Shown one piece after another: positions 1,776 through 29,298 of a DNA stretch of 64,000 nucleotides. The stretch comes from an uncultured virus (IMG/VR IMGVR_UViG_3300036770_005540) (taxonomy: Duplodnaviria > Heunggongvirae > Uroviricota > Caudoviricetes), in IMG/VR virus record IMGVR_UViG_3300036770_005540, positions 1-64,000 of that record; one strand, 5' to 3'. The notes under the pieces are model-generated. The model was not told where the DNA came from and ran no database searches. It saw only the letters and a list, made by a program, of their open reading frames with translations. Numbering within the stretch: the stretch's first letter is position 1; each line of letters begins with the position of its first letter. A program made the translations under genes and the position numbers.

Positions 1776-1790
1776 CCAGACAGTCTAGCG

Positions 1791-4190: not shown

Positions 4191-4263
4191 GGGCCAGTAA
4201 CTCAGTGGTTAGAGTAGCACTCTTATAAAGTGCAAGTCGCGGGTTCAATTCCCGTCTGGCCCA
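4191..4263 (+). tRNA. tRNA-Ile(UAU)
   Basis: Acceptor stem GGGCCAG/CTGGCCC with discriminator A, anticodon arm GCACT-CTTATAA-AGTGC (anticodon TAT at 4224-4226), T arm GCGGG-TTCAATT-CCCGT. Confidence 0.92.
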
Positions 4264-4890
4264 CTAAAATTCTTGTATCAAAAACCCACTTCCTGTTATG
4301 TCGTATGCTATTTCTGGTGTTAGTTGGGTATCTGCAATATCTTTATCTATTTGCCTTCTAAAAGCACTGTGAAGCATGGATGGATATGCATATCTTTGCA
4401 CAGTATGTATGGCGTTCTGGGAAAACTCCATTAAGTGCCCCCAGTCGACCCTTCTCCCCAATCCATATTTGTATGGCATGGAAAAAAGATATATATCCGG
4501 TACACCAACCAATTCGTTTTCCTCACAATGTATAACGGTTAGGCACTCTTTGACTTTGGTCTCGGGTTCCAGAAAAGCCAAGGACAGTTCCCTGTTTTGC
4601 GGTTCGTCCGCAACATACCCCTCGGCAATAAAAGTCAAAGACGTTACACCCAATTGAAATCTTAGAATTTTCATTAACTCATAACACCTGGCAAACCTTT
4701 TTTGATGGGGCTCTTTCATAAACTTTGATTCAAGTTGGGCACACAAAAATGGCCTATTATCACGCCACGCAAAAAAGTTAAAGGACAGGTCCTCCCCAAC
4801 ACCTTCGGATTTAACAATTAGATTTTTTGCAAGTTGCGACGCAGTAAGTGTCAATGCAATCTTTGAAAAAGGGTCAAGATATTTGTCCAC
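4264..4890 (-). CDS. Hypothetical protein
   Basis: 208-aa ORF, no recognised motif. Confidence 0.65.
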   Translation of the reverse strand: MDKYLDPFSKIALTLTASQLAKNLIVKSEGVGEDLSFNFFAWRDNRPFLCAQLESKFMKEPHQKRFARCYELMKILRFQLGVTSLTFIAEGYVADEPQNRELSLAFLEPETKVKECLTVIHCEENELVGVPDIYLFSMPYKYGLGRRVDWGHLMEFSQNAIHTVQRYAYPSMLHSAFRRQIDKDIADTQLTPEIAYDITGSGFLIQEF

Positions 4891-8984: not shown

Positions 8985-9599
8985 TTGAATACGTTTATGG
9001 GTTGGGGTTTATCTTTTACCCTATTTTTCCTAGGTATAAACATTCCCGCAAGAGCCGACGCCCCCATGTCGGCCGTTGAGGCCCCAGCAACCCCATCGGT
9101 ACCCGAAGGGCTCGAACACCAATGGTCCCCATGGCCAAGTGAAAAACTTGAGACGTCTAGGGCCGAGGCAAATAAGCCACCAGAGACGGTTTTTAAATGG
9201 GGCGACATTTCCTGGTTGCCGAAACTGGCAACCGAGGCTGGCTGGCCGCCCGAAACCCACAAAAAACTTGGCCAAATCATTCTGAGAGAATCCGGGGGGT
9301 GTCCAAATAGGCGTGGCGGTGATGCCGTTGACCCAAATTGCAATATCACCCACGTAACCACGTGGACTCATCGTTCTGATACTGGATTGTTGCAAATCAA
9401 TGGCGTAAATTACAACACCAAACGCAATAAGTGGGCGCGTGTCTGCCTTGACATGGGCATCTGTTCGCAAGAACCGCTTCTAGACCCCCTCCTAAACCTT
9501 AAGGCTGGCTATCTTCTCTACACCTACTCAGGCTGGGACCCATGGGACCCCTGTGCGTGGGGTGAAGCGTGGGCGCACCGTTGCAAAAAGAAACCGTAA
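8985..9599 (+). CDS. Secreted lysozyme-like/SLT lytic transglycosylase
   Basis: Signal-peptide-like N-terminus. Catalytic RESGG, DTGLLQIN, N.KAG..LY and GW.PW motifs. Confidence 0.8.
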   Translation: MNTFMGWGLSFTLFFLGINIPARADAPMSAVEAPATPSVPEGLEHQWSPWPSEKLETSRAEANKPPETVFKWGDISWLPKLATEAGWPPETHKKLGQIILRESGGCPNRRGGDAVDPNCNITHVTTWTHRSDTGLLQINGVNYNTKRNKWARVCLDMGICSQEPLLDPLLNLKAGYLLYTYSGWDPWDPCAWGEAWAHRCKKKP

Positions 9600-9626
9600 C
9601 GGGTTTCTGCGGCTAGTATTTGCCGC

Positions 9627-9935
9627 GTGACAAAGAAAAACATCAGGGGAGAAATCCTAAACGAAACAGAAGCCATCATTAATGGCAAACGCAACAGAGA
9701 CTATGGCGACCCAGTAGAGGACTTTACGACAACTGCCGCACTCTGGCAGACGTATCTTGCCAGAATTTATGCGCGTAGGGGAGAATTAACACTTCTGCCC
9801 CACGATATTGCAGCCATGATGATGCTCCTTAAGATGGCGCGACTTACTTGGACGCCGGAAGAAAAAGACCACTGGATGGACACAATCGGATATGGGGCAC
9901 TTGGGTGGGAATGCGCGGTTAGAGAAGATGACTAG
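9627..9935 (+). CDS. DUF6378-like phage protein
   Basis: R...YGDP...F...A.LW, MMLLKMAR and D.W.D.IGY motifs. Confidence 0.75.
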   Translation: MTKKNIRGEILNETEAIINGKRNRDYGDPVEDFTTTAALWQTYLARIYARRGELTLLPHDIAAMMMLLKMARLTWTPEEKDHWMDTIGYGALGWECAVREDD

Positions 9936-10108
9936 CCGAGACACTCACGACATTATTGCCTACGAAACAGAATTGGGTACAAAAGAACCCACCTATAGTC
10001 CCCCAAGGGAACTGTATGAAGCATATTTGAGGCATATCAATGCAGCAATTATCCATTCCTCCGAGCAGGTTAAGTACTTCGAGGAACTTTTCGAGGAAAC
10101 TGACCAAA

Positions 10109-10534
10109 ATGCCTGACGAAAAAGAAGAAGAACTTCTTACCCCTGACGAAATTAAGTCAGTTTTAGTCGAAATAATCGACAAAATTCAACCGCCGTGGGG
10201 CAAAACGATTGCATGCGATGATGGTTGGCATCAATTGGTCGCAAAATGCCACTTGGAACTCAAGGCCATGGACCCCAACTATGAGATTTTTCAAATAAAA
10301 GAGAAGTTTGGGACACTTCGTTTCTATTTTTTGACTCGAAAAAACGATTATGTCGAATTGGAAATGTGGAAAATATCCCAAAAATATGAATTGGCTTCAG
10401 CCGAGATATGTGAAATAACTGGAAAACCTGGAAAATTGATGCATAAAAATGGCCGCTACAAAACTCTTGCAGAGGAATACGCCCAGGATGGTTGGATGGT
10501 AGTCGAAACTGCAACTACCGACCAATTATCATAG
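10109..10534 (+). CDS. Conserved phage hypothetical protein
   Basis: GW...QIKEKFGTLRFY...ICEITG motif common in phage proteins. Confidence 0.65.
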   Translation: MPDEKEEELLTPDEIKSVLVEIIDKIQPPWGKTIACDDGWHQLVAKCHLELKAMDPNYEIFQIKEKFGTLRFYFLTRKNDYVELEMWKISQKYELASAEICEITGKPGKLMHKNGRYKTLAEEYAQDGWMVVETATTDQLS

Positions 10535-10538
10535 TGAA

Positions 10539-10937
10539 GTGACCACGGAACACAGAAAAGCACCGCGTAAAAAAGTTATCTCAATTCATAGAGTCGGAGC
10601 ATGGGGCCACATACTCTACGAACATAGACTTGAGTGTGGTCACACAGAGAGGAGGCCCAGGGCGGCTTCTTCTGAAACCCTTGCTTGCGCTTGGTGCTTT
10701 CGCTCACAAGCAAAAGAAATAGAAATAAGAGCGCTTGGCACACCCGCAAAGTCGGTAGATTTTGACGCTGCAGACAATGAAATAGATATTGCACGAATAA
10801 AAGCACAACTTGCGCACGTCCTTAGCGTGGCGCTTGAGCAGGTCGAAATATCCGTGGTTGACAAACTTGGCGAGCAAAAAATATCTGGCGCCGTTGTGTT
10901 CCTGTCGGAGGGGAATGTACGTAAACTAATCGGCTAA
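10539..10937 (+). CDS. Hypothetical protein with LECGH...CxxC putative Zn site
   Basis: ORF within a + strand operon-like run. Confidence 0.6.
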   Translation: MTTEHRKAPRKKVISIHRVGAWGHILYEHRLECGHTERRPRAASSETLACAWCFRSQAKEIEIRALGTPAKSVDFDAADNEIDIARIKAQLAHVLSVALEQVEISVVDKLGEQKISGAVVFLSEGNVRKLIG

Positions 10938-10953
10938 TGGGAAAGGGGACAAA

Positions 10954-11562
10954 ATGAGCAAGCGCAAAGAGTTCACCGAAGAGCAAAAGCAGGAGATAAT
11001 CCGATATCGGAGGGAAGGAAAATCATGCGAACTTATCGCCTTCTTTTTGCATTGCGGAAAAGAACGGGTTCGTAGATTCTGCAAGGAAAACGACATTCCA
11101 GTCGGCCAACCATCACGACAAAATAGTCATTATCCATCAAAATCCGTAGCAGAAGCGCAGATAATCTACACGCCATATCCGGATTTCTCGCTTGCCGCAT
11201 GTCGAGGAGAAAGTATTCAAACGTTTTTTCCATCTGCGCGAATGGCAAATGGGAATAAATCGGAAAAATTAAATTACTCGAGAGTTGTTATTAGGGCAAA
11301 AAAATTTTGTTCAGATTGTCCAGTGCAAGAAAAATGTCTTGATTATGCACTGCTTGCAGAGCCACATGGGATATGGGGTGGGACAACCGAAGAGGAGCGC
11401 GAATACCTTCGTTTAAAACTAAACATTAAATGCGAACGTGATTCTGGCCTTTCTACACGAATGGTTCGTCGCCATCTGGGCACGCATACATTCAAAATGA
11501 ACAATTTGACCAAGTATGACTTGAATCCGATTGTTTCTTCGAGGCTTTCAACACGTGTCTAG
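10954..11562 (+). CDS. whiB: WhiB-family regulator with N-terminal HTH
   Basis: AAC...FFP...C..CPV...CLDYAL...GIWGG, preceded by an HTH-like segment. Confidence 0.85.
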   Translation: MSKRKEFTEEQKQEIIRYRREGKSCELIAFFLHCGKERVRRFCKENDIPVGQPSRQNSHYPSKSVAEAQIIYTPYPDFSLAACRGESIQTFFPSARMANGNKSEKLNYSRVVIRAKKFCSDCPVQEKCLDYALLAEPHGIWGGTTEEEREYLRLKLNIKCERDSGLSTRMVRRHLGTHTFKMNNLTKYDLNPIVSSRLSTRV

Positions 11563-13273
11563 CATTTCGCCACAACTACAGAATGTTCTTGACCGCCTAC
11601 AGGGCGTCGTGCGCATTTCTGGAGGGTTTCAGGCGAAGTGCCCATGTCGCAACGATGACGACAATCCATCGTTTTCAGTATCCGAAGGTGAGGGTGGTAA
11701 GGTCGTTGTTTACTGTCATGCAGGGCGATGCAACACCCAGCAGGCGTGCGAGGCGATGGGCATAAAAATGGCAGACCTTTATCCGCAGAAAGCAAAAAAA
11801 GAACTTGACTTTGTTGCCAAGTATCAATACCTTGACGCTGACGGAACTCTACTTTTTGAAAAGTTGCGCTACATAGATAGGTCGTCTGGGAAAAAGGAAT
11901 TTCGTCAGCGCAAGCCAGATGGCAATGGTGGCTGGGAGTACAAACTTGGCGAAACTCCTCGGGTGCTTTACAACCTGCCAGCAGTTCTTAAAGCAAAACA
12001 GAATGGCGAACCAGTTTGGCTGGTCGAGGGGGAAAAAGATGCAGACACTCTCATCAAAATGGGTATATGTGCGACGACTATGCCCAATGGGGCTGGAACA
12101 TGGTTGCCCATCCACACCGAAGCCCTCTCTGGTGCAGTTGTGGAAATTATCGCCGACAAAGACGAAGCAGGGCTCGAACACGCAAAGTCGGTTTATCAGG
12201 AGTTAATAGATTCCGGTTGCGACGTTCAGGTGTGGACGTGCACACATGGCAAGGACATGACCGAGCATGTTGGTGCTGGGGGTCAGATTGACGAATTGGA
12301 AACTGTAAATCTCGATGCGATTGTCATTCCTAAGCCAACCGAAAATAAGTTGCAATCGGACACGCACGAGGGTCGGGCGATGAATGAAATAACCGACATG
12401 TTTTTGCGCGACGACATGTCGGAAAGTCAAAAATTACAGCGCGCACAACTTATTATTTCTCGCACGACTAGCACAAAAATAGTCGACACCGGAAGGCTTG
12501 TAACTTGGTCAGATTTCGTTGGTGAATCAGACGACGATTCATACGATTGGGTAATTCCTGGTTTATTGGAGCGCAACGAGAGGGTCATTATTGTTGCCGC
12601 AGAGGGTGTTGGCAAGACCATGCTTGCTCGCCAAGTGGCAATATGTGTTGGAATGGGAATACACCCATTTACATATCAACCAATAAAACCTCAAGTAACA
12701 CTTTCTGTTGACCTTGAAAACCCGGAAAGAATCATTAGGCGCACATCACGCTCGATATATGGGGCAGCAAAATCAGTGTCTCGTAATCCAAGCCCGCAAG
12801 CACATTTGCTAATAAAGCCCCAGGGTCTTGACCTTTTGCGAGCAGAAGACAGGGCAGTGTTGGAAGAAATGCTGGAAAAGACCAGGCCATCAATTCTGGT
12901 GATGGGTCCCCTGTACAAGGCATTTATAGACCCAGGCGGGAGAACCAGTGAGGCTGTAGCAATTGAAGTTGCCAGATACCTTGACACCATTAGGGATGTT
13001 TTCCAGTGCGCAATGTGGCTCGAACATCACGCACCGCTTGGAACATCGATGACAACCAGGGAACTTCGCCCATTTGGTTCTGCGGTTTGGTCTAGGTGGC
13101 CAGAATTTGGCGTATCACTTCAGCCCGACTCAACTGGAATGCCATTCCATTACGATGTGCGACACTTCAGGGGTGCTCGCGATGAGCGCCAATGGCCAAC
13201 TAGAATTAAGAGAGGCAAACGTTTCCCATTTGAGGTGGTCGAATGGCCATCCTCCATTAAGGCACCAACATGA
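11555..13273 (+). CDS. DNA primase-helicase (Zn finger + TOPRIM + RepA/AAA_25-like helicase)
   Basis: CPC...PS...CHAG.C Zn finger, VEGEKDAD and DKDEAG TOPRIM motifs, Walker A AEGVGKT, LEHH, GS..W. Confidence 0.88.
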   Translation: MSSISPQLQNVLDRLQGVVRISGGFQAKCPCRNDDDNPSFSVSEGEGGKVVVYCHAGRCNTQQACEAMGIKMADLYPQKAKKELDFVAKYQYLDADGTLLFEKLRYIDRSSGKKEFRQRKPDGNGGWEYKLGETPRVLYNLPAVLKAKQNGEPVWLVEGEKDADTLIKMGICATTMPNGAGTWLPIHTEALSGAVVEIIADKDEAGLEHAKSVYQELIDSGCDVQVWTCTHGKDMTEHVGAGGQIDELETVNLDAIVIPKPTENKLQSDTHEGRAMNEITDMFLRDDMSESQKLQRAQLIISRTTSTKIVDTGRLVTWSDFVGESDDDSYDWVIPGLLERNERVIIVAAEGVGKTMLARQVAICVGMGIHPFTYQPIKPQVTLSVDLENPERIIRRTSRSIYGAAKSVSRNPSPQAHLLIKPQGLDLLRAEDRAVLEEMLEKTRPSILVMGPLYKAFIDPGGRTSEAVAIEVARYLDTIRDVFQCAMWLEHHAPLGTSMTTRELRPFGSAVWSRWPEFGVSLQPDSTGMPFHYDVRHFRGARDERQWPTRIKRGKRFPFEVVEWPSSIKAPT

Positions 13274-13941
13274 GCAATACCCCAATGACAAAAGAGTTTC
13301 TCGCAGAAAGAGACACAAGAATTTTCAAGATGAAACAGGCTGGTGTCTCAATTTCAGAGATAGCCAAGCGATTTAATGTCTCCACAAAAGTTGTTTCAAT
13401 GGCCATTTCGCGCCAATTGGAAAAATTAAATAAAGAAAACGTCCTTGTTTACCCAGAAGTCCTTCGAATGGAACTGGAGAGGCTTGACGCAATGCAGGCA
13501 GCCCTATGGCCAATGACTCAGCACAGGAAGATAACACTGGATGACGGAACAGAAGTTGCCGTTGAGCCAGACATGAAAGCCGTAGACAAGGTTTTGGCGA
13601 TAATAAACACAAGAACAAGGCTGCTGGGCATGGAGCAGACCAAGGTAAGCATTCATACGGACGCAGTCCCAGATGGTGGCGGCGCTCCAATTAGGGCCTC
13701 TCTTGCCGGTCAGTCTGGAAATATTGGGGAAATAGATTCCTTTGACCCGGAGTCTGAGGCCAAAAAATTGCTCGAACTTATGGCTATTTCCGGTGTTCTT
13801 CCAGAGGAAACTGTCACCAAAATGCTTGGACAAGCGCCTATTATCGATGCCGAGGTGATTGAAAATGACGAATCAGGAGCAGGACAATCAGGAACAGGAC
13901 AACTTGCAAGCGGCAGTGAGCAAGGTGGCGGAAACCCTTAA
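13270..13941 (+). CDS. HTH DNA-binding protein, possibly terminase small subunit-like
   Basis: N-terminal HTH (GVSISEIAKRFNVS) and ELERLD...R.RLLG pattern. Confidence 0.5.
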   Translation: MSNTPMTKEFLAERDTRIFKMKQAGVSISEIAKRFNVSTKVVSMAISRQLEKLNKENVLVYPEVLRMELERLDAMQAALWPMTQHRKITLDDGTEVAVEPDMKAVDKVLAIINTRTRLLGMEQTKVSIHTDAVPDGGGAPIRASLAGQSGNIGEIDSFDPESEAKKLLELMAISGVLPEETVTKMLGQAPIIDAEVIENDESGAGQSGTGQLASGSEQGGGNP

Positions 13942-14197
13942 TCCAACGGTTTCAACAATCAGCAAAGACGACAGCGGCCCTGCGGATAAACAGGTTTTAA
14001 TTCGAACAACCGAGTCAGAAAAAGAAAAGTGGAAGAACGCAGCGGCAAAAGAAGGGATTCCGCTTTCCCAATTTGTTAGAGACACGCTTAACCAAAGGGC
14101 AACCGAACTTCTTGATTGTTCTCACCCAATTGAGCATCGACGATGGTATCCATGGGCTGAGTTTTGTCTTAAATGCGACACTAGATTGAGGGGATGA
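13865..14197 (+). CDS. Ribbon-helix-helix-like protein with C-terminal Zn motif
   Basis: QVLIRTT..EK..W..AA..EG..LSQFVR, then C.H...C..C. Confidence 0.6.
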   Translation: MTNQEQDNQEQDNLQAAVSKVAETLNPTVSTISKDDSGPADKQVLIRTTESEKEKWKNAAAKEGIPLSQFVRDTLNQRATELLDCSHPIEHRRWYPWAEFCLKCDTRLRG

Positions 14198-17923: not shown

Positions 17924-19189
17924 GTCCCGCACACTTTTGGTCTATGGGGTTGGCAAACGCCTGTTCGCTTACGGCAACGACGAACACTCGTTCGCACCCT
18001 CCAAATAGCGTCCCGATGAGCGCAAGAGCAACGCTGAACAACACCACGCCCAACCATAGCACAGGTCAAATACACGTCCCGTTTGCCGAAGTGGTGCGCC
18101 ACAAACCTGAGTGTGTCGCAGAAATAGTCGCACTCAACGCCATACACGCCCCGTTTGCCATATCAGTCGTGTATCGCAGTCGCAACACGCCGTTTCACTA
18201 CGCCCCGTTAGGCGCATAGCATTGTGTGTTGTTACGCATACGCATACGAAGTTGCCCATCACCTAGCCCCGTAGCGCATAGCGTTTCGCATAGCGCAGCG
18301 CAGTCGCATACGCATACGCCCCGTATTCATTAGTCTTTTCGTGTGTGTCGCATACGCATTTCGTATCGCTTGTCGCATCTAGCCCCGTGAGCCATAGCCA
18401 TAGCAACACGCAGGCACACATACACGTCCCGTATGCGCCGTGCGCTGGTGTGTGTGAGCATACGCATAGCCAACCCATAGCCACTATGCCCCGTATGTCG
18501 CATACGCATTCAGATACACACGCCCCGTTGAGTTTTTCGCAGGCTTCACGGGTGACCTACGGGCATACCCTACCTATGACAACACCACACACCACCACGC
18601 ATCTAGTCCCGTAGGTAGTGATAGGTATTTGTAATCAGTAGTCACGCACCATAGCAAGCCCATACCCCTACCCCTATGTGTGTCGCATCTAGCCCCGTAA
18701 GCACTACACCATAGGGATACCCCCACACCACGCCTACCGTGTGTGGCTTCATCTAGCCCCGTGACGCATACAACCTTTCGTAAAGGACTTGATACTTAGC
18801 CGCCCCGTGTTTTCGCAAGGCTCACGGGTGGCTTACGGGTGCTTACACCTACCTACACCACTGCCTACACCACACACGCATCTAGCCCCGTAGGCACTTG
18901 ACTACACGCCACCTGCCCATAACCACATTTGGTCGTTGCTGAACATAGGCCCCGTAGTCGCCTATCGCAGTCAAGCGATACGACATCTCGCTTATGAGAG
19001 TGCTTCACTATGCCCCGTATGGCGTGTGAGAGACTGAACACGGCGCAAGAGCCGTGTGTCTACTTGCGCCCCGCACAACATAGTCGCAGAACAGCACTTG
19101 TAGACAAACGATAATCAGCCCCGTACAAAACACGGATTTTGAGGGTTTTTTCAGCGTTTTTAGTGCTGTACTCAGCGCACTCAGCCCCG
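17924..19189 (+). repeat. Non-coding array of 21 co-oriented GYCCCG hexamers (about 63-bp mean spacing) in purine/pyrimidine-alternating sequence
   Basis: Copies at 17924, 18010, 18076, 18148, 18202, 18266, 18318, 18382, 18426, 18488, 18522, 18606, 18692, 18756, 18802, 18885, 18949, 19012, 19068, 19118 and 19184, often as ATCTAGCCCCGT. No credible ORF. Confidence 0.88.
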
Positions 19190-19230
19190 TGCCATAATAA
19201 AAGAACCCGATTACACCAAAAAGGACTTGT

Positions 19231-22200
19231 GTGACGCAACTTGGCCCCGAAAACAAAGACATTTACGAAGTTGATGTAAAAGACGGCAACCGTCTAGGTC
19301 GTCGCTTGTCTCGGGGCTTGAGGTCACTATCCAGAAGTGTCGGAAACACGGCAAGGTCGGGACTCGTTGTGGAACCATTTGACCCAAACGCATACGACGG
19401 TGATGGTGACGGCATAATCCAAGACGGAACACAGTGGGAACGCCCCGCAGTGCTAAGAAGTCAGTCAATACCAAACGCAGACTTGCCCAAAACACCTGAT
19501 GCCGGGACTGAAACAGAAACAGAAAAGACACAAAAAGAGACAAGAAAACTCGTTGACGCAGCAGAGCGAGCCGGGACTCGGATTTCGCCAGAACGCTCAC
19601 GGGTGACTACGGGTGGACTACGCAGTACGACAGTAACGCCGTTGCTTGACCCAGAGTGGCGAAGAACAGCAACGCCCCGAGAACTCGCTGAAATAATCGT
19701 GCCAGACACGCTTGATGAAGCAGACGCACTAGCAGAACAGTTGGCAGTGCCCCGAAGTGCTTATGAAACCGAAGCAGACTACCAAAACGCACTAAAACTA
19801 CTCAGAAGAACTCGGGACGCAGAAAGAGCCGCATCCAAGCGTCGTATGGAAGCACTTATCGCGATTTACGAAAAAAGACACCCCAAAACAACCAAAACAG
19901 GCTCGTTTGAGCGGGACCTAAGAGATGACCCTATTGAGTGGGACAAAAACCTCAAAAAAATCTTTGGCGACCAAAATGAGTGGGGCGAACAACTCGGGGC
20001 AACAAACAAACGGAGCGTTGAGCGGGCTCAAATAGAGTTTTTGGTCGCTTACAGAACAGAACTGGAACGGGACCCAGTAACAAACAAAACACTATTGGAC
20101 ATAATAAATGAAATAGAAAACGCCTATCGAAACGGAGTGAGGCTCACGCACGGGGCTTTTTGGAGAGACAGTACTCACATACCAATCAGTCCCGTTGAGT
20201 ATGTGCTTGCTCGTTTGTTTATGGAACACTCAAACCACCCACAAGACCCGTTGTTCATAACCGGCATTCGGGACGTAGTAACGCCGTCGGGCGACACCGA
20301 CGCAGTTATCAGATGGGCGACTGAGTTCCTTGATGGATACCAAAGGTTCTACGAAGCACGAAAGGGGTCCCGTGCTCTTTCCAAGCAACAAATAAAGAAC
20401 AGAATAGAAGTAGCAATGAACTCTGGGTCAAGAGGAGGCTTTTTCGGGACCCTTTTTGGTAGGGCTATTCCAAACGAACAATACATACAAACACACCAAA
20501 TGGTGGAAAGCAACGACCCTCGGGACCTTGCGCTACTACGGGCACTGTTACAAAGAACGCTAGAACAAAACCCTGAGTTTTTGGAAGCAGTAAGGAAGTT
20601 TGGACACCCGCCTCTCTATGTCCCGCACCGCGCTTACCATTTCATTGCCCCGCCAAGAGAGTTCCAAGAAAAGTTTTTGCTTGTTCCAGAAAGCGAACTA
20701 ACGCCATCTGAACTGCGGGACAAACTTATTTCAGGAAAAGAATACGAAAAAGGTTTGCTTGAAGCAATCCGCGCCCAAGAACTCGGAAAAGGAGATGTCA
20801 CGTTCGGGGCAGGTGGACTACTTGGTGTACGGGCGGGACTTGGTGGACAGTATTCATTTCCTGATGGGCAAATAACACTTACCCCAATGCAACTGAGAAA
20901 CACAATACTCAACCGCCCCGAGGCTGATGAAAACATAATCAACATGACCGGGACACAAGGCGCATACACGCTTGTTGGAGAACCAGCAATTCTCATACAC
21001 GAATTTGGCCATCACGTTGATTGGACTTTGCGCAACACCTTGTACGGGGCCTTGTGGGAGAGACGCAAGAGGGCTATTCGTGACTTTGCCAACGACCCAA
21101 ATAGAAATACAAGCCCCGACGTGTTCAAAGATTTTGTTCGTCAGCAGATAGTAGATTTTCGTGACGAACTAAAAGGCTTCACGGGCTTGGTAGACCCCGA
21201 TAACCCAAGCAAGTTGTCCGGGGCATCAGATAGACAAAACATTCATAGAAGTCGCTTGAAGTACTTAGGAGTGAACGTCCCCAGACAAGGCCCCGACGAA
21301 GTTCCTGTTGGTAGTCGTCTGTTTGACCCATCAACGCTAACCGACGAAGAACTAGATGACCAAATAAGGGAAATAGCGGGGCAACTAGATGAAATTCACG
21401 GAATGGTCGACATGCTGACTGGTCGCCAGCAAATACGACGAATGAAAGAAAACGGCACGTGGCAACGTGGCATCCACCCATCAGAAGGAGACGTAGGCGA
21501 TTACGCCATAAACAGCCCCGAACCTTATGTAACTACGCCATACGGAAATAGCAGTGCGATTGAGCGTTTTGCTGAAATAACAGCGTTTGTTTTGTCCCGC
21601 AACGGACAAAAACAGCCTGTTGCGGTGAATAACGCCGCCGTGCGTCTATGGGCTCGGATACTTGGCATAGATGTAGAACCACAAGATGTTGTTTCTCAGT
21701 CCCGTCGCAAAAGACTTCCTTCGGGTGGCTACTCAGACGAAATGGAAGACATAACAAACCGCATACTCTCAGACATAAAGATTGTTGCGCCAGATGTTCA
21801 GAGGCAGCCAGACGGTCACCGCCCCGGTTTGCAATCATCAACGTCATCATCAGATTTTCGTTTTGACCCAGATGAACGAAGCATGTTGCAGTCCCGTAGC
21901 AACATAGGCTTGGACACAGACCAACGCCTGTACGCACAAGATGAGCCGATAGGCGTTATGGATTTCATGAATAGGCCCCGTGTCTACTCAATAGGCGACC
22001 ATCATTTCTACGATAACGAAGTTCGCTATGGCTCGCAGATGAGTTTTGCGATGAGAAAGCGACTTGGAGAACAAGCGGGACGCAGATACATCAACAGAAA
22101 CAGACCCCATCACGGAGATATGGTGCGGGCGATTTCAGCAACGCAGTTTGGACTGTTTATTGACGACCTTCCAACTTACGACACAACTACATCGGGGCAA

Positions 22201-25200
22201 ATGAACGTTCTTCGTGGACTTGTTACGGGCAGAATAGCCAAACTACGCCCCGAAGAACGCTCACAAATAGAAGAAGCACTTAGAGACGCAACGAGAATAC
22301 ACTCGGCTATTTACGGCGCAACTCCGAACAAACGGGACACATACAGAGCGATAAAGACTGATAGAAAAACATTTTTGGAAAGCGTTGCCGTTGGCGACGA
22401 AATACCTATGCCGATTACGGCCTTCAGCCCCGATAAGCCCGACAACAACGAGAATGTGATTATCCGACTAGAAAAAGGCGCAAAAACCATAGATGTCGGC
22501 AACAGGCAAGTTCTTACTCAGGGCAATTTTGAGGTCGTTTCGGTTGATGACGACGGGACCCGTGTCATTGCCACGTTGCGCCATAAGGAAACATTTGACC
22601 CACGCCACGACGCACTTAGACCCGTGGACAAGTTTTCGGATAAGCCGAACGCAATGCGCAAGATGGGCAGTCCAATGCCCCGATACACCAGAGACGAACA
22701 ACAAAAGATGGAAGTTGATTTGGAGCGCAGACAGGACAAAGACAAAGTGTTTGGCTTGCGCTCAACAACGGGTATGGTCCCGGAGGATTTGAGCGAAAAA
22801 GAGATTGACGATTTCCTTGATGAAGAAGTGAACCTGTTTGAGGAAAAGCGGGTCCCGAAAGAAGTAGTTGATAAAGCGAAAAAGAATTTGCGTGATTACT
22901 TGCAGAGAAGTGCTATTCGTCGTTTTGTCAAGACAAAGCAAGCCCTTATCCAAAAGTACGGGGCCGATAAGCCGTGGGAAAGAGACGCAGACGCAATACG
23001 CAAATGGAGAGCAATCGACAGGGAAACCGCCGCACGGGTAAGCACAGTCCTGAGACGCAGCCTAAGAAACGCAATTGACAATAGAACTCGGGACATGATG
23101 GATGCCGACACGGGCGAATTGTTTGACGACGCAAAGGTTGGCTTGTCCAGAGTACTGGACAGGTTCAACTATTACATAAACGACTACGAAGGTATTGACT
23201 TGTCAGCGGGGCAGATTAGGCATCTTCTCGAAACTGGTCAGTTCGTTTACTGGAGACGGGACGACGAACTGTTCCCAACTGAGAAAATGGTAATCAATTT
23301 GCCAATCAACTCACCAGAAATGGCAGAACTCAAACAGGTTTTGGAGACGACACTTCCAGCATTGGAGGCGATGTCTCGGGCTTACTTGCTCGATGGTTCG
23401 GTCGACGTCCCGAATGCCAACAGAAGCATTTGGGAAGACCCAAAGATTGGCGGAAAGATAATCCTCAACAACGAGGAGTTGAACATAGTCCCGAACGGTA
23501 AGGGCGTTTATGCAATATTCCAGCCAGATGGTTCTGAAAGCATAAGCCTTGTTGCGAACGCATCTTTTGGAGTTGGCAGCCAACGACCCAATGGAACAAC
23601 TGGTTTTACTCGCAAAATAGGGCTAGACCGGGACGGGAATATTGTCATTGGTCATGACCGTTTCTGGATGGGCAGCAAGGACAGAGAACGCAAAGGTTCT
23701 GGTGTGGCGACGCTATTCAACCAGCATTCGTTTTTGTGGTGGAAGCAGCATGAGGGCACTGAGGTTGTGGTCCCGAATGCCGTGAGTGACGGCGTGATTG
23801 TGTGGCCACGTCAAGGTTTCCGTCGGATTGGTCAAGCACGACGGGACGCATTGGAAGAACAAGAAGGATTTTTCCATATGGTCAGGGCTTTGGTGCTGAA
23901 ATCAAAACGACAAGAACTGTTTGACGCAAACCGTCCCGAACGCGGGGGAACGGCAGAATACGAAGCGGCGCAGTTGGTGAAATACGTTGATGATGTTGAT
24001 AGTAAATACGGACTTGATAATCCAGAGTTTGCAAAACGCCTAGTGAACTGGCTTGCGCTTGCTCGCACAGCAAATGATAATCAAAGCCCCGAAACAGACC
24101 TCATCAACATATTGGCAAACATTATTGAGCCAAGAGAATTGAACGACAGCCAACGCCTGAGTTGGGCTGAACTGTTTGGACAAGTAGCGAAAAGCAATAG
24201 TTTCAGCATGTTTTTGAATCGGGACGAAAGCGACAATGACTACCTACCATCATTCGTCATCCCAGACCCGACTGACGACCTAGACCCGATGGAAGTACAA
24301 CGCCAAATAGAGCGTGGCAGATTGTTGCGCCAAGAGTTGGAGAACTCACAGGCCCCGAGCGAAGTATCAAGAGATATTTACTTCCCAGAAGATGACAAGG
24401 AAATTTCTAGCAACCGACTGCTTGGGGAAAGACAAGCGGGACGCCTATTTGCAGCCGTGAACATAGACGAAGCGACCAGTTCGGATACACGAACTTTTTC
24501 CTCAGCACGGGCATTCATGTATGCGAGAGAGGGTTCTGGCTTCAACGTCCCGCCAAGACTTCTCACACGGGTGGAAACAGAGGAACGAATTAGCAGGGGT
24601 GAAATACCCCTCTATGGTTGGATTGACCTCAATCGTGTCGGCATTTACACGAGCGACAGAAACAACATGCAAGAACTTTACGAGCAACGAGTTCGCAACA
24701 ATATGGTCGGACTGGCGGGGCCGAGTGAAGTCATGCGTTTCACCGATAAGCCATTTGACCACATTGACGATTTCCACGACACGAACAATCCAGTTACAGA
24801 CCCAGCAGCAGTTCGCAGTGGAATGCTTGGCTACCTAGCCCCGTGGGCTCGTGTTTACAAAGGTAAGCGAAATGCTTTGCCAGAAATGTTTTGGGGCAAC
24901 AGCACGGAGATTTCAATCGCAAGAGACATGCGGGACAGGGGCGATTTTGATGGTTTGATGGCTTTGCTTGTCAATAAGTTTGGCGAGGAGGTAGATAACT
25001 CGGTGATGGGCACGGACGTTGCGTTAGTAGAAACCCTAGATGGATTTTTGCCAAATGGAAACTCCGAAACAGCACAGACGGGACGCCGAGTGTTGGGGGC
25101 ATTGTTCCAAATTGAAAATAATCGAAGAATGGCCGAAGCAGGTATCTCAACGGCAATTAGGCAAGATAAGATACAAGGACTTAGAGATGGCTTGCTTGCC

Positions 25201-28200
25201 ATCATGGCAACAGAGTTTGACCAATCATTGCTGGTTTTGATGGGATATGACGCAATACAGCACAAAGACGGGGAGTTCACAATCCTCAACAACATGGCTG
25301 TCGAACTAATGGATGAGCCAGTTTCGTTCGCCCAAGCAGCGAGGATGATTGACGACCCGAGATTCAGAGCCATACCGTCCGATAGGTCCCGTTACTCAAC
25401 GTTCATTGAAACAAGACTTGTGGATAACCCTGACTGGTTTAGTGGCGACGACCCACGCCTGCTTGCCGACGAACCCATTTCTCTTACAAAAGCGGGTTTG
25501 AACAGTTCGACATACATAAGGTCTGTGCGTCAAGACCACAACATCAACCTAGAACGGGGACTACGCAGTAGAACACGGGGCTCGATTGCAAGCGCAAGAG
25601 AAAGACAGCGCCGAGAATCAGCAAGAGAAGGTAAGTCAGATGGGTGGGTAAATCCTGACGACGCATCATTCAAACAAGAAGTTGTAGAACTCGAGGGTCG
25701 CTTCAACGCGTTGGTTGCCCAACTTGAGGAGTGGGACGATAGGAACCTTGAACTCGACCGCCCCGATTGGGCCGGCCGCGAAGAAATCAAGAAGCAAATG
25801 GATGAAATCTCGGACCAGTTTGCGTCACTCATCAACACATCTAACATCGTCATTGAGAAATCCATGGAACACCAGGCGCTCATTGACGCCCTTGACGCCA
25901 TAATCAACGAGCGGGACGCCGACTACCTAGACGGGCGACCAAAGGTGAAAGATATTTCGCCAGAAATGCTTGACAAGATAAGGGCGTTGCGGGATAAACT
26001 GGTACAAGAGAAGCAAGATAATCCAGGCTTGCTTGACTTCACACGGGCACGTGTCAGACACAAGACAATCAAGAACGCAATGGAAAACTTCGACCTTCAG
26101 TACGAGGTTCGTTGGTTCAATAATGAACCTGACACAGTTGAACTTGAAGACGTAGTCAAAGCGGATGTTTCCGACAAGGCCGAGGCTTTCGTAGAACACA
26201 TTTATCGTGGTCTGTTCGACGAAAGATACGACGCTTGGAGGGAGTACATGAAGCCGACGATGGCATTCGGCGTACCCCTTTACGACTCGACTTGGGAGTT
26301 GGGCCACAAGAGAGTTGGCGAACTGTTTGACGGGGTGAGCCCTGATGAACGGGACGCTTGGAGGGCGGCGCACAAGGACTTCCTCGATAGTGAATACAAC
26401 GCAGAATACGAAGAGGACATCATCGACTCAACACCAGTCGGTGGTTCGACCAGACCACGTGACGTCCCCGCCCCGATTTGGCGTAAAGTCAGGGCTGCCA
26501 TGTCACGGGCACGCTCAACTCCATACAACGGCGAGAAAGAGGCTGCCACAAACGCAGCGATACGACTCCTCAATCCACACCGACCAGATTTGGCTAACGA
26601 AGACTTTGTTTCGGGCATTAGGTCGCACACTATTGTCAGCACACCTCGGTCGGTAGTGAACTTCTCTTCCAAGCAAATGCGGGGCGCCAGCCCAACCTCT
26701 CCAACAACCGCAATTGAGAACCACGCATTCTCACGCATCATTGATGAGGTGAGGAGCCAAGGCATAGAAATAGAAGAAGCAGACCTATTGCCCACTGGTA
26801 AGTACGGAAGCAAGTTGCGCCAGATTATGGACGACAACCAATCCACACAGTCGGTTAATTGGTTGATTAGACAAACAGAAGACGACCCAGTTCTTTCTGC
26901 CGTCGTAAATGCGGCGATAAAGCAGGCTCGACTCACAATGGGCATAACCCCAATCGAGGGTCACAGAATCAAAAAGGTGAACGGCCCCGTTGATGAGGAG
27001 ATTGCTGATGTTCTCGTAGACGACATCGACTTGGCTTTGTTGCGTAATCAGGGTGCGCCAACCTATGACCAAATTATCCAAATAGCAGCAGCAAAATACA
27101 TAGAACACGATAGACTGAACAAAGCATTCGGTTCTTACCAAGACCCAGAAGGCAAACTCATCGGCGCTGGCTTTACCCGCATCGACAAAAACAGCACTGC
27201 CTACCTGACGACGATGACCAGCGCCCCAGACGTTGATGGGAAAGACTACGTCTATAGGGACATTCGGGGCAACGAGGTTGCCCGCTTAAAGCGTTATGAC
27301 AGCGTGAAGTCAGATAACGTTGCAAGTCGCAAACCAAAAACCTTGAGTAATTTCGCCACGCAACACTCACTCATCAAGACCAATGACGCCATTTTCGGGG
27401 TAATGGCGGAGGCGGTTGAGTTTACGGGTGACTACGAAAATGCAAGTTTGAAGAAACTAAGGGCGACTATAGAAGAACTACAAAGCATTTACAGGAACTT
27501 TGAGTTTGCCCCGACTCCAGCGGGCCAACACCTGAAAAAACTATTTGAAGCGAACCTTGAAAGCGAAGTAAAAACTTTAGAACTTCTGGAAAGAATTGGG
27601 CAGCGATATGTACACCTGTTGCGTGAGCGGGGCATTTCGGACAAAGAAATAAGAGAGATGCTCTCAACCGTCAGGAAACAAACACTCAAGACAGCCGTTG
27701 ACCCCGTGGGGAGGGAGGACCTATTCCTGAATGGCAGCCCGATTCCAATCGGCAGTTCCAATGACGGAACAGTCGCAGAGCAGGCACTTTATGGCTTTTT
27801 GAACAGCAAACTCGGTAGTGCCATGCTGCCCCGTTTCGCCGACTCAGACGCACCTGCTGGTTTTCACGAGATTGGTCACTTTTCTTTTGGCCAAGCCTTC
27901 TCACGTCACGGTGAGTTCGTCGCCAATGCTTGGCCATTCTTTGTGCATGGCGACGCATTCTGGAGGTCGTTTGTCGCCTTACAGCGCAATCAGGCACCCA
28001 CCTTTGACAAGTGGACAATATCTGAGCATCTTGGGAAAGCCCTGAGCCCCGAACAGAAAGCAGCCTTCAAGGATGCCTCAAGGCTCATAGGCAAAACACT
28101 TAGCCGAGACTTCGTCGCTGCATTTGAGAGAGAAAGATACATATCTCTTGGCGATTCAGAACGACAAATAATAGCCTCGGATGTCATTGCGGCAGTTCGG

Positions 28201-29298
28201 GGCAATGACACGCTTGGCGATAAAGAAAAAGAAGAGTTAATCACACAAATTCAAAAAGAGATAGACGGGGATATGTTCTTTATTGGTGTGCCCAGAACAG
28301 GACGACACAGCGAAGAAGAAAAGAAATTCCTTCGGGAATTGGGATTACCTGAAGACGCAGTCCCGGACAACGGCATAACTGTGGGCACTTGGAAACTTTA
28401 TGATTCGCTAATTCCGCTTAATCCAAGCGTGTTTGGGTGGCAGCGTCGTGATGGACTCAGGAGTACCACCAACGAGGAGAGACAAAAATTAAAAGATGAT
28501 GTTGTTGAGCATGTTCTTGCTGGAAATACACTCAAGGCAACGGCAAAGAAGTTTAATATCAGCATAGAATCAGTCTCAAGATACCTGAGACAGGCTGGCG
28601 TCCCGAATCTTGGACAACGCCCGATTGGGATTGCGACGACAGACGATTCCTATCGTGAAACTGGCAAAATGGTTCGCGCCGATGCCCCTGATGTCCTGAA
28701 GGCAAAGTTTGATGCCTTGACACAGATGATTGCCGGCGGGACCGACCTGCGTGAGAGTTTGGAATCCATAAACTTTTCTGGCGTTGATATTGATTCCGTG
28801 ATTGACTTTATGGATAACTTGCCAGAACTCCCAGAACGTTGGTCTGGTACTAGAGGACCATTTACCGATAACGCTCTTTACCGAGCGATTTCTCTGATGG
28901 CTGCGCTTGGATTCTCAACAAACCTTACATCTGAAACATTGGGGTCAAGCCCCGTAACCGTCACCAAGTACAGGAAGCATTCAGGCTTTGTCCCACCAAA
29001 GATTCGGGGCGGGAATCCAACCCATAGAGGGCTCAGCAGCACAACTGCCACCTCTCGACAGCGCCGTGAGTTTGCGACATTGCTCAGGTCTGTACACTCG
29101 CTGATGGGCGGGCGCCCCGTGTTCTTTGGCAACGAAACTGATGAAGAAATGGCTATTGCTGAGCGTTTGTTCCGTCAGAAAAGAACGGCTGCTAAGCGTC
29201 GTTTGTCGCCTATCATTGATGCTCTGAGGGGTATGGCTCAGAGATACCCAGAACTGAGCAAGGATTTCGCTGACGAACTGAAGGAGATTTCCAGATGA
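19231..29298 (+). CDS. Giant (3355 aa) polyvalent multi-domain protein: zincin x2, ART-like, GNAT, DUF2786-like, HTH x2
   Basis: HEFGH (about 20998) with later E.FAE; YRAI...AFS ART-like segment (about 22340-22590); RKGSGVA...G..VW.RQGF GNAT (about 23640-23820); GYDAI (about 25243); KVRAAMSRARSTP..GEKEAA (about 26485); HEIGH (about 27865); HTHs at about 28520 and 28900. Confidence 0.8.
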   Translation: MTQLGPENKDIYEVDVKDGNRLGRRLSRGLRSLSRSVGNTARSGLVVEPFDPNAYDGDGDGIIQDGTQWERPAVLRSQSIPNADLPKTPDAGTETETEKTQKETRKLVDAAERAGTRISPERSRVTTGGLRSTTVTPLLDPEWRRTATPRELAEIIVPDTLDEADALAEQLAVPRSAYETEADYQNALKLLRRTRDAERAASKRRMEALIAIYEKRHPKTTKTGSFERDLRDDPIEWDKNLKKIFGDQNEWGEQLGATNKRSVERAQIEFLVAYRTELERDPVTNKTLLDIINEIENAYRNGVRLTHGAFWRDSTHIPISPVEYVLARLFMEHSNHPQDPLFITGIRDVVTPSGDTDAVIRWATEFLDGYQRFYEARKGSRALSKQQIKNRIEVAMNSGSRGGFFGTLFGRAIPNEQYIQTHQMVESNDPRDLALLRALLQRTLEQNPEFLEAVRKFGHPPLYVPHRAYHFIAPPREFQEKFLLVPESELTPSELRDKLISGKEYEKGLLEAIRAQELGKGDVTFGAGGLLGVRAGLGGQYSFPDGQITLTPMQLRNTILNRPEADENIINMTGTQGAYTLVGEPAILIHEFGHHVDWTLRNTLYGALWERRKRAIRDFANDPNRNTSPDVFKDFVRQQIVDFRDELKGFTGLVDPDNPSKLSGASDRQNIHRSRLKYLGVNVPRQGPDEVPVGSRLFDPSTLTDEELDDQIREIAGQLDEIHGMVDMLTGRQQIRRMKENGTWQRGIHPSEGDVGDYAINSPEPYVTTPYGNSSAIERFAEITAFVLSRNGQKQPVAVNNAAVRLWARILGIDVEPQDVVSQSRRKRLPSGGYSDEMEDITNRILSDIKIVAPDVQRQPDGHRPGLQSSTSSSDFRFDPDERSMLQSRSNIGLDTDQRLYAQDEPIGVMDFMNRPRVYSIGDHHFYDNEVRYGSQMSFAMRKRLGEQAGRRYINRNRPHHGDMVRAISATQFGLFIDDLPTYDTTTSGQMNVLRGLVTGRIAKLRPEERSQIEEALRDATRIHSAIYGATPNKRDTYRAIKTDRKTFLESVAVGDEIPMPITAFSPDKPDNNENVIIRLEKGAKTIDVGNRQVLTQGNFEVVSVDDDGTRVIATLRHKETFDPRHDALRPVDKFSDKPNAMRKMGSPMPRYTRDEQQKMEVDLERRQDKDKVFGLRSTTGMVPEDLSEKEIDDFLDEEVNLFEEKRVPKEVVDKAKKNLRDYLQRSAIRRFVKTKQALIQKYGADKPWERDADAIRKWRAIDRETAARVSTVLRRSLRNAIDNRTRDMMDADTGELFDDAKVGLSRVLDRFNYYINDYEGIDLSAGQIRHLLETGQFVYWRRDDELFPTEKMVINLPINSPEMAELKQVLETTLPALEAMSRAYLLDGSVDVPNANRSIWEDPKIGGKIILNNEELNIVPNGKGVYAIFQPDGSESISLVANASFGVGSQRPNGTTGFTRKIGLDRDGNIVIGHDRFWMGSKDRERKGSGVATLFNQHSFLWWKQHEGTEVVVPNAVSDGVIVWPRQGFRRIGQARRDALEEQEGFFHMVRALVLKSKRQELFDANRPERGGTAEYEAAQLVKYVDDVDSKYGLDNPEFAKRLVNWLALARTANDNQSPETDLINILANIIEPRELNDSQRLSWAELFGQVAKSNSFSMFLNRDESDNDYLPSFVIPDPTDDLDPMEVQRQIERGRLLRQELENSQAPSEVSRDIYFPEDDKEISSNRLLGERQAGRLFAAVNIDEATSSDTRTFSSARAFMYAREGSGFNVPPRLLTRVETEERISRGEIPLYGWIDLNRVGIYTSDRNNMQELYEQRVRNNMVGLAGPSEVMRFTDKPFDHIDDFHDTNNPVTDPAAVRSGMLGYLAPWARVYKGKRNALPEMFWGNSTEISIARDMRDRGDFDGLMALLVNKFGEEVDNSVMGTDVALVETLDGFLPNGNSETAQTGRRVLGALFQIENNRRMAEAGISTAIRQDKIQGLRDGLLAIMATEFDQSLLVLMGYDAIQHKDGEFTILNNMAVELMDEPVSFAQAARMIDDPRFRAIPSDRSRYSTFIETRLVDNPDWFSGDDPRLLADEPISLTKAGLNSSTYIRSVRQDHNINLERGLRSRTRGSIASARERQRRESAREGKSDGWVNPDDASFKQEVVELEGRFNALVAQLEEWDDRNLELDRPDWAGREEIKKQMDEISDQFASLINTSNIVIEKSMEHQALIDALDAIINERDADYLDGRPKVKDISPEMLDKIRALRDKLVQEKQDNPGLLDFTRARVRHKTIKNAMENFDLQYEVRWFNNEPDTVELEDVVKADVSDKAEAFVEHIYRGLFDERYDAWREYMKPTMAFGVPLYDSTWELGHKRVGELFDGVSPDERDAWRAAHKDFLDSEYNAEYEEDIIDSTPVGGSTRPRDVPAPIWRKVRAAMSRARSTPYNGEKEAATNAAIRLLNPHRPDLANEDFVSGIRSHTIVSTPRSVVNFSSKQMRGASPTSPTTAIENHAFSRIIDEVRSQGIEIEEADLLPTGKYGSKLRQIMDDNQSTQSVNWLIRQTEDDPVLSAVVNAAIKQARLTMGITPIEGHRIKKVNGPVDEEIADVLVDDIDLALLRNQGAPTYDQIIQIAAAKYIEHDRLNKAFGSYQDPEGKLIGAGFTRIDKNSTAYLTTMTSAPDVDGKDYVYRDIRGNEVARLKRYDSVKSDNVASRKPKTLSNFATQHSLIKTNDAIFGVMAEAVEFTGDYENASLKKLRATIEELQSIYRNFEFAPTPAGQHLKKLFEANLESEVKTLELLERIGQRYVHLLRERGISDKEIREMLSTVRKQTLKTAVDPVGREDLFLNGSPIPIGSSNDGTVAEQALYGFLNSKLGSAMLPRFADSDAPAGFHEIGHFSFGQAFSRHGEFVANAWPFFVHGDAFWRSFVALQRNQAPTFDKWTISEHLGKALSPEQKAAFKDASRLIGKTLSRDFVAAFERERYISLGDSERQIIASDVIAAVRGNDTLGDKEKEELITQIQKEIDGDMFFIGVPRTGRHSEEEKKFLRELGLPEDAVPDNGITVGTWKLYDSLIPLNPSVFGWQRRDGLRSTTNEERQKLKDDVVEHVLAGNTLKATAKKFNISIESVSRYLRQAGVPNLGQRPIGIATTDDSYRETGKMVRADAPDVLKAKFDALTQMIAGGTDLRESLESINFSGVDIDSVIDFMDNLPELPERWSGTRGPFTDNALYRAISLMAALGFSTNLTSETLGSSPVTVTKYRKHSGFVPPKIRGGNPTHRGLSSTTATSRQRREFATLLRSVHSLMGGRPVFFGNETDEEMAIAERLFRQKRTAAKRRLSPIIDALRGMAQRYPELSKDFADELKEISR

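Follow-up and report, generated by a model that had tools for sequence, protein, structure and literature searches.

Why should a giant phage protein carry the same six-residue string at one domain border after another? The question is raised by one gene in a 64,000-nucleotide stretch of DNA from an uncultured virus of the Caudoviricetes (IMG/VR record IMGVR_UViG_3300036770_005540), here called the window, which represents positions 61606-125605 of the 136,198-bp contig G001 (91% complete). The only long open reading frame (ORF) at this locus, 19231..29298, has a GTG start and encodes a polyvalent multi-domain protein of 3355 amino acids (P0001); coordinates refer to the + strand of the window unless stated otherwise. 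The recurring motif, G[LI]xSxT, is probably a signal for proteolytic processing. We propose, with a probability of roughly one half, that P0001 is a head-targeted polyvalent effector polyprotein that would be cut at the motifs by a prohead protease of the Peptidase_S78 family.

A six-residue motif recurs in a giant phage protein

Eight copies of G[LI]xSxT start at residues 129, 866, 1175, 2089, 2110, 2462, 3075 and 3267 of P0001, and all of them were found at the residues and nucleotides listed in the initial annotation of this DNA, which was made from the sequence alone. In 5000 composition-preserving shuffles of the protein the motif occurred 0.11 times on average and at most twice, and no shuffle reached the eight copies observed, so that the comparison with shuffled sequence proposed in that annotation came out clearly. 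The form GLRSTT occurs three times in P0001 versus not once in 3000 shuffles. The 18-nt strings that encode the copies differ from one another; the motif is therefore conserved at the protein level, as the differing codons had already been taken to indicate. Chance and a DNA-repeat origin of the motif were both rejected. GLRSLS at residue 29, which had been listed as an additional motif, was rejected as a ninth copy: the string is present, but it is not conserved as a motif and falls inside a module of about 65 amino acids that is described below.

A protein search retrieved 15 relatives of P0001 at 82-29% identity, all of them metagenomic, and the motif sites were followed through the aligned proteins of clades A, B (P0013-15) and C (P0016, P0017). 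The copy at residue 129 (GLRSTT, 19615..19632) ends an N-terminal piece of 128 amino acids; it is strictly kept in 4 of 11 clade A proteins, and 5 more have near-variants (GLRATT, TLRSST, GSRATT). At residue 866 (GLQSST, 21826..21843) all 11 clade A proteins have G[LIM]xSST. The copy at residue 1175 (GLRSTT, 22753..22770) is likewise found in 11/11 clade A proteins, with ALRSSG, SLRSSG or GLRSTG in clade B. Residue 2089 (GLNSST, 25495..25512; 8/11 in clade A) is paired with residue 2110 (GLRSRT, 25558..25575), and a second copy lies 20-27 residues past site 2089 in 9 of the 11 clade A proteins. Site 2462 (GIRSHT, 26614..26631) reads GIRSxT throughout clade A (11/11), [ST]LRSxG in clade B and GL[TR]SMR in clade C. 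Site 3075 (GLRSTT, 28453..28470), which precedes the variable C-terminal cargo, is strict in 8/11 clade A proteins, and site 3267 (GLSSTT, 29029..29046), at the border between the cargo and the conserved tail, is found in 2/11. Six of the sites hold their position in homologues down to about 38% identity. The conservation in homologues that had been expected was thus seen at sites 866, 1175 and 2462 in the whole of clade A and at sites 2089 and 3075 in eight proteins each.

The initial annotation had also predicted that the motifs lie in disordered linkers. Two AlphaFold2 models were built with alignments of 14 rows, model 1 for residues 760-1900 (mean predicted local distance difference test score, pLDDT, 62) and model 2 for residues 2040-3200 (mean pLDDT 74). 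For five of the six modelled sites the surrounding segment, which separates confident domains, has a pLDDT below 50 (chance 0.0014 by a simple binomial estimate), in agreement with the prediction. Site 866 opens the low-confidence stretch 108-162 of model 1 and site 1175 lies in segment 410-428 of the same model; sites 2110, 2462 and 3075 lie in segments 71-79, 425-433 and 1034-1044 of model 2.

The motif is concentrated in head-module giants, one of them headed by a prohead protease

A search of all proteins of G001, as had been suggested, showed that the motif recurs outside P0001. Five giant proteins (10,702 amino acids) hold 26 copies, with 0.37 expected, versus 5 copies in the other ORFs (32,394 amino acids; 1.39 expected). 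Eight of the 26 are those of P0001; the other 18 (0.27 expected) are in four proteins of the head module, of 1225 (3 copies), 3039 (6), 2206 (6) and 877 (3) amino acids, all encoded on one strand in the interval between the portal gene and the capsid gene. The 1225-aa protein, encoded next to the portal gene, starts with a Peptidase_S78 domain (PF04586, residues 21-165, 40.1 bits at a cut-off of 21). The prohead protease that had been named as one candidate for the cutting enzyme hence exists in this phage and heads a motif-bearing protein.

In the head-module proteins, as in P0001, the copies flank recognizable domains. An RNase_T match (2371-2561 of the 3039-aa protein) lies between copies at 2320 and 2616, a Sigma70_r4 match (414-456) is followed by a copy at 466, and a Zeta_toxin match (649-795) is preceded by one at 625. 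Copies are paired at a distance of few residues in several places (2089/2110, 1059/1070, 546/553).

Two of these proteins deserve a description of their own. The 3039-aa protein (L009:7600-16719, +) is a second giant polyvalent protein, with six motifs, an RNase_T exonuclease domain, a KTSC-like stretch and the strings HEMVH at 673 and HELGH at 2854. The 877-aa protein (L010:7123-9756, +) is encoded directly before the capsid gene and contains DUF3721, sigma-70 region 4 and a Zeta-toxin-like kinase, parted by motif copies, together with the N-terminal module of P0001.

An N-terminal module is shared with the protease fusion

This module of about 65 amino acids, here termed the DGDG module, covers residues 10-74 of P0001 (19258..19452; hidden Markov model E 2e-26) and has the layout G-R-x-G-R, a basic stretch and then VLDPxxRRDxDGDGxIFDGTWxE. 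Of the five motif-rich proteins four contain it: at 10-74 in P0001, at about 400-466 in the S78 fusion, at about 229-289 in the 2206-aa protein and at about 219-277 in the 877-aa protein. The 877-aa and 2206-aa proteins were outside the training set of the model and were matched with E values of 1.7e-21 and 5.3e-20, respectively; in the 3039-aa protein the same model found no module. A motif copy or near-copy follows the module by 1-70 residues in all four proteins.

With a profile of the four copies, 131 cluster representatives of 1.84 billion were found at E <= 0.001, 37 of them at E <= 1e-10. Full-length matches lie at the N-terminus of proteins of 3300-4400 amino acids, at about 220-300 of proteins of 900-2200 amino acids and at about 400-480 of S78 fusions. 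In 14 of 31 module proteins a loosely defined h-x-S hexamer occurs within 55 residues after the module, a count made without a control set. Because the S78 protease, which is required inside the prohead, has the module, we consider the module a candidate head-targeting domain. A role in capsid loading had been considered for the hexapeptide itself; such a role more likely belongs to the DGDG module, as it is shared with the S78 fusion.

The motif has lineage-specific dialects

Relatives of the S78 fusion are numerous: 303 were found in the protein collection, and in IMG/VR 542 of 600 pattern matches encode one, of which 80 loci were kept. The motif changes its form between lineages, and in each lineage all copies change together. 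Clade B (P0013-15 and loci L013, L014, L016) has no GhxSxT, and 4-10 copies of [STG]LRSxG stand at the same aligned sites. The two clade C proteins have 5 and 4 copies of [GST]hxSx[RK]. Further dialects, uniform within a locus, are [ST]LRSSG (L032), GL[AS]SxK (L042), GLSSGA (L075, L054), GLSSGR (L095), G[FL][AS]S[RQ]G (L094), G[FM]xS[RS]R (L078) and GxLSSGx[RK] (L062).

Fusions and homologues of P0001 use the same dialect where they can be paired by longest contigs of equal length, which are a fingerprint and no proof of a shared contig. The fusion P0031 and the homologue P0005 (both 100,239 bp) have the T form, P0044 and P0013 (both 118,066 bp) have ALRSEG/TLRSSG, and P0060 and P0016 (both 118,652 bp) have GLVSRR/GLLSRR. 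Five partial viral contigs with homologues of P0001 gave no match to the protease because of their short length. In 16 non-redundant loci the sixth residue at the post-module site of the protease predicts the commonest sixth residue of the other ORFs (S = 53 versus 24.2 +/- 6.9; 0/10,000 permutations), a result that is inflated by kinship of the loci and includes one site, in L041, that was mis-picked by the script.

Both signals also tie a distant gene to the head proteins in the 86.8-kb contig G010, which encodes an S78 fusion as well as giant head proteins whose motif reads G[FM]xSxR. An 810-aa protein encoded about 38 kb from these combines the DGDG module (41-72) and the motif GFSSRR (500) with a region, at about 538-800, that is homologous to the ADP-ribosyltransferase (ART) region of P0001. 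The gap between motif and ART match is 38 residues there and 41 residues in P0001 (site 866). This protein is a minimal version of P0001 in the dialect of G010's own head proteins.

Many S78 fusions of about 2000 amino acids (P0075, P0077, P0082, P0091, P0092 and others) have Pfam matches to sigma-70 region 4 and to helix-turn-helix (HTH) domains on the protease chain, a sign that the packaged cargo may include transcription factors.

Proposed mechanism and choice of the protease

In the mechanism that we propose, the DGDG module would bring P0001 into the assembling head. The motif G-h-x-S-x-z (here GL[RQNS]S[ST]T) in the linkers between domains would then be the processing signal common to all head-module giants, and its most likely cutter would be the Peptidase_S78 prohead protease, an assemblin-like enzyme of the HK97 type. 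Cutting would free the targeting piece and the other parts, about eight products in all: zincin-like, ART, 914-aa GNAT-like, helical and second zincin-like modules, a C-terminal cargo that is exchanged between homologues (HTH in P0001, a second ART in relatives) and the conserved tail. The pieces would be ejected along with the DNA. The data show the motif with its excess over chance, conservation, linker position, spread over the proteome and concerted dialects, as well as the shared module and the folds, whereas packaging in the head, cleavage, the acting protease and delivery are inferred. The reading as a processing signal withstood all the sequence-level checks that the initial annotation had listed as potential refutations. 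Assemblin-type sites have a hydrophobic P3, any P2 and a small P1, and by this analogy we guess that the scissile bond is located after the invariant Ser.

Several findings favour the S78 protease. It is the head protease, hundreds of contigs encode it as a fusion with motif-rich chains (some of them directly with proteins of 2500-3800 amino acids), and in its own chain a motif copy stands right after the module. The complete genome G012, which has terminal repeats, encodes an S78-led giant protein with the recurring motif; another S78-led giant protein, seen in a partial locus only, is encoded by the complete genome G013. A complex prediction for the S78 domain (1-180) and the linker 1155-1195 gave a score of 0.00; it was run without controls and weighs neither way.

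Other findings weigh against the proposed mechanism. Between dialect groups the identity of the S78 domains averages 77-83% and reaches 93-95%, and the dialects are not cleanly separated by any column of the alignment, columns 90 and 94 being the sole hints. As the domain is nearly invariant, the dialect-specific residues may be read by another factor. The major capsid protein and the portal have no motif copy, even with a relaxed position matrix, and the N-terminal region of the capsid protein is nearly identical in three phages with three dialects; if S78 trims the capsid protein, it would do so at a site unrelated to the motif. The head module is 22 kb away from the gene for P0001, which sits among replication genes, between those for helicase/primase and for the single-stranded DNA-binding protein. 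Conservation is also high in the sequences that flank sites 866, 1175 and 2462. Site 2089 is the sole modelled site outside the low-confidence segments; in model 2 it borders a short, moderately confident helix. The shallow alignment may be partly behind the low pLDDT of the other sites. The pairing of homologues with fusions in clades A-C is subject to the limit given above. Finally, a tape-measure-like protein of 1647 amino acids (G001 9239-14182, - strand, locus L002), which is expected outside the head, has two copies, GLASST and GLASAT (P = 0.006 by shuffling), and the weaker GLASSS and GLASSM. These copies may reflect chance in a protein rich in Gly, Ala and Ser, or processing beyond the prohead.

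A tentative and rather unlikely variant is a two-part grammar in which the address module, which would load giant effector chains into the head, is combined with a lineage-specific code after the Ser. A fast-evolving or host-specific factor, not the nearly invariant S78 domain, would read this code, and the packaged chains would be opened into active enzymes only in a suitable host or when the timing is right. If this were true, the dialects would mark host range or an arms race over effector activation.

Another explanation, which we regard as unlikely, is that a different protease reads the motif, either a host protease, which would release the effectors only once they have entered the right host, or the HslV/proteasome-like peptidase of the phage (58836..59468, - strand), with dialects that track the host or the enzyme. 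The HslV-like gene is present in 4/4 phage records checked, with 58-63% identity in G010, G012 and G013, and both the constancy of the S78 domain between dialects and the lack of the motif in the capsid protein would fit. There is also a precedent, since capsid and scaffold proteins of the staphylococcal phage 80-alpha are trimmed by the host protease Prp. However, the motif is tightly tied to S78-led polyproteins over hundreds of contigs, which favours the fused protease, and proteasome-type peptidases are not known to act as site-specific processing enzymes.

It is similarly doubtful that the motif is cut by zincin-like domains of the polyvalent proteins, of which the initial annotation had considered those of P0001 itself. 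Such cuts could be made in cis or trans, either inside the head or once the proteins have been ejected. The two HExxH motifs of P0001 are invariant in 16/16 proteins, the 3039-aa head protein has two more, and the available text on polyvalent proteins proposes autoproteolysis (PMC5512222). Three of the five motif-rich proteins lack HExxH, however, so that the zincins would have to act in trans. In a search with G001 as positive control, the zincin-1, ART and zincin-2 regions of P0001 were all without a match in G012 and G013, although unrelated zincins in these genomes were outside this search. The 810-aa protein of G010 has module, motif and ART without most other modules of P0001; HExxH was not searched there. 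The zincins of P0001 are thus unlikely to be the general cutter.

Improbable as well is a role of the hexapeptide as a docking or Ser/Thr modification motif, for example as an anchor to a conserved partner inside the head such as the 451-aa protein that is encoded after the protease, with dialects that co-evolve with the partner. Docking motifs are typically found in disordered linkers like these, the dialects vary while the protease domain does not, and the 451-aa protein is conserved in 4/4 phage records checked. On the other side, the copies lie exactly at domain borders and directly after the module, they precede swappable cargo, and closely paired copies fit redundant cut sites. That the repeats are functionless recombination scars of module shuffling is very improbable: the cargo behind site 3075 is exchanged and fusion architectures vary widely, but the codons differ between copies, so that homology at the DNA level is not maintained, the sites are kept over long evolutionary distances, and all copies in one phage switch dialect together, unlike scars.

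Comparison with known systems and significance

Cleavage by S78 at an address-linked signal would resemble the fate of the internal proteins of phage T4, from which a capsid targeting sequence is removed by gp21 at L/I-x-E. Both would have an address at the N-terminus with a protease site behind it, and the T4 cargo is delivered with the DNA. The T4 address has about 10 residues; here it is a conserved module of about 65 residues whose role is predicted, and the cargo is a chain of enzymes. The protease shares the Pfam family S78 with HK97 gp4, its candidate catalytic residues H59 and S123 are invariant in 12/12 fusions, and the motif resembles the sites of herpesvirus assemblin in having a hydrophobic residue at the second position before a small one. 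In the Gordonia phages, the closest cultured ones, the protease is encoded by a small separate gene adjoining that of the capsid protein, whereas here it heads proteins of 1000-3800 amino acids. The short conserved junction in front of exchanged cargo (site 3075) is reminiscent of polymorphic toxins such as CdiA. Unlike CdiA, P0001 is a phage protein and not a secreted bacterial toxin, it has a conserved tail after the cargo, and its junction is the motif of all the other domain borders.

Recognition of one short consensus in many head-packaged proteins is described for SPN3US and phiKZ. In SPN3US, as far as the accessible text goes, head proteins and ejection proteins are cut by the prohead protease gp245 after an AXE motif that they have in common; propeptides are removed there, and several copies per propeptide are possible (PMC10052503). 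Judged by the same portion of that paper, our system differs in that a Peptidase_S78 is fused to a long polyprotein, that the motif G-h-x-S-x-z is without Glu and has lineage-specific dialects, that it lies between catalytic domains and not just behind N-terminal propeptides, and that capsid protein and portal are without it.

The polyvalent proteins described by Iyer et al. 2017 (PMC5512222) also combine many effector-type domains in one polypeptide (ART, metallopeptidase-like, acetyltransferase-like, HTH). In the available part of that report, packaging and release of the domains by proteolysis are predicted and autoproteolysis by embedded metallopeptidases is proposed; no recurring site is named in that part, while P0001 has a defined inter-domain signal in common with the S78 polyprotein and other head proteins. 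This signal offers a defined and testable basis for the cutting of polyvalent proteins, which the same text (PMC5512222) predicts without a defined signal.

Neither the motif nor S78-led polyproteins nor this group of phages was found described in the literature searched, in which few subscription journals were covered. Of the known mechanisms, cutting of head-packaged proteins at a common short motif by the prohead protease, as in SPN3US and T4, comes closest to our proposal, and of the known protein classes the polyvalent proteins do. Compared to these systems, the new elements are an S78 protease at the head of long polyproteins, motif sites at all domain borders in several giants, an address module, a distal gene tied to the head by both signals, and dialects that change in concert. 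The data define a large group of uncultured phages in which the head module has grown into several giant multi-enzyme proteins. They provide a six-residue border signal, a candidate protease fused to the chains, a candidate address module and natural dialect variants. If the proposed mechanism is true, effector boundaries in thousands of unannotated giant phage proteins would be legible from sequence alone, and the pair of address and cut site could be used for loading foreign proteins into phage heads.

Domains of the giant protein

AAGGA is located 8 nt 5' of the GTG of the ORF. Residues 12-25 are conserved across homologues, and the GTG start of the 3355-aa version was therefore preferred over the shorter database version P0002 (3309 amino acids). 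Against the cultured phages of INPHARED neither megablast nor tblastn with both halves of the protein gave a match, and no cultured relative carrying an S78 fusion was found. The whole protein has almost no matches to Pfam and PHROGs. A profile of 16 homologues against PDB sequences gave a single weak row (E 0.092), and residues 2462-3074 had no usable match in the ESM Atlas.

The ART-like module that had been noted from the sequence was recovered as a fold, at residues 932-1120 (22024..22590), by both Foldseek and VIA. Foldseek listed 28 PDB chains at E <= 0.001 (best 6dre_B at 5e-5), and VIA listed 18 chains with Z scores from 10.6 (root-mean-square deviation 4.9, 146 aligned residues) down to 8.5 for model residues 173-361. 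The R-S-E motif of ADP-ribosyltransferases consists of the catalytic Arg, a Ser/Thr motif and a Glu. R1039 is conserved in 16/16 proteins, T1063 in 16/16 within ITAF[ST], and E1101 in 15/16 within QGxFE, where the spacing from Q to E departs from the usual Q/E-x-E. Pfam does not match this internal domain.

For the GNAT module the support is weaker. Residues 1400-1517 (23428..23781) gave middling VIA matches to HAT1 chains (Z 6.0-6.2) and to other acetyltransferases (Z 4.4-4.7) for model residues 641-758, and a KxxGx[AG] stretch is present. The proposed module thus has a fold match of about Z 6; it has no Pfam match.

The two zincin modules that had been proposed could be confirmed at the level of the HExxH motifs. 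HEFGH (residues 590-594, 20998..21012) has invariant H, E and H in 16/16 proteins, and HEIGH (residues 2879-2883, 27865..27879), followed by an invariant GQxFxRHGE, is likewise invariant in 16/16. Neither Pfam, PDB sequences, Foldseek nor VIA matched a zincin fold or family, with the models covering residues 760-1900 and 2040-3200 and excluding HEFGH. For model 2, Foldseek listed nothing at E <= 0.001 and VIA gave only helical-bundle rows, a single helical sub-domain filling the list, so that the zincin part was barely tested.

A DUF2786-like stretch at residues 2418-2448 (26482..26574), after a long helical region, had a Pfam E value of 0.11 and otherwise helical-bundle matches only. The HTH cargo at residues 3081-3121 (28471..28593) is weak in P0001. 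Both assignments of the initial annotation therefore stay below the Pfam cut-off in the giant protein itself and are above it at aligned places in homologues, DUF2786 in P0014 and HTH in P0003, P0004, P0005, P0008 and P0015. The cargo behind site 3075 is exchanged between these proteins: HTH domains are found in the latter five, and ADPrib_exo_Tox in P0010 and P0014. In the conservation profile the lowest values fall between sites 3075 and 3267, ahead of a conserved tail of 75 amino acids (residues 3281-3355, 29071..29295). With an ART fold, a weak GNAT-like fold, HExxH motifs and HTH, P0001 unites at least two unrelated effector or enzymatic domains in one phage polypeptide, which is what defines a polyvalent protein. 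The initial picture of a polyvalent effector holds in view of the two folds, the pair of invariant HExxH motifs and the C-terminal cargo that is swapped between homologues.

The phage and the region upstream of the giant gene

A PHROG scan of 86 ORFs of the window revealed ribonucleotide reductase, MazG, two WhiB-like regulators, primase, helicase, single-stranded DNA-binding protein, the HslV-like peptidase, a metallophosphoesterase and an endolysin. The rest of G001 encodes tail sheath, tube, the tape-measure-like protein, terminase, portal and major capsid protein. The closest cultured capsid proteins, at 44-52% identity, are those of Gordonia and Brevibacterium phages. Based on these relatives and the WhiB genes, the host is inferred to be an actinobacterium, and the phage is probably an uncultured myovirus.

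Directly 5' of the giant ORF, at 18060-19190, at least 15 copies of GCCCCGT are located on the same strand. The whole 136-kb contig has 35 copies on the + strand versus about 6 expected per strand. The extended consensus of the array is CGCATCTAGCCCCGT[AG], and the spacings are mostly 52-66 or about 106 nt. The region has no match in Rfam, the small ORFs called in it have no PHROG matches, and upstream regions of relatives do not share GCCCCGT. The array may represent an origin or iterons, binding sites of a regulator, or clustered promoters. A shared late-promoter word was considered and rejected, as no 11-mer is common to the region upstream of P0001 and the intergenic regions of the head module; the few words that it does share with other DNA occur in the neighbouring upstream region and in one further region between genes.

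Two tRNA genes, Arg(tct) at 1790-1863 (- strand) and Ile(tat) at 4191-4264 (+ strand), adjoin the ribonucleotide reductase gene of the window.

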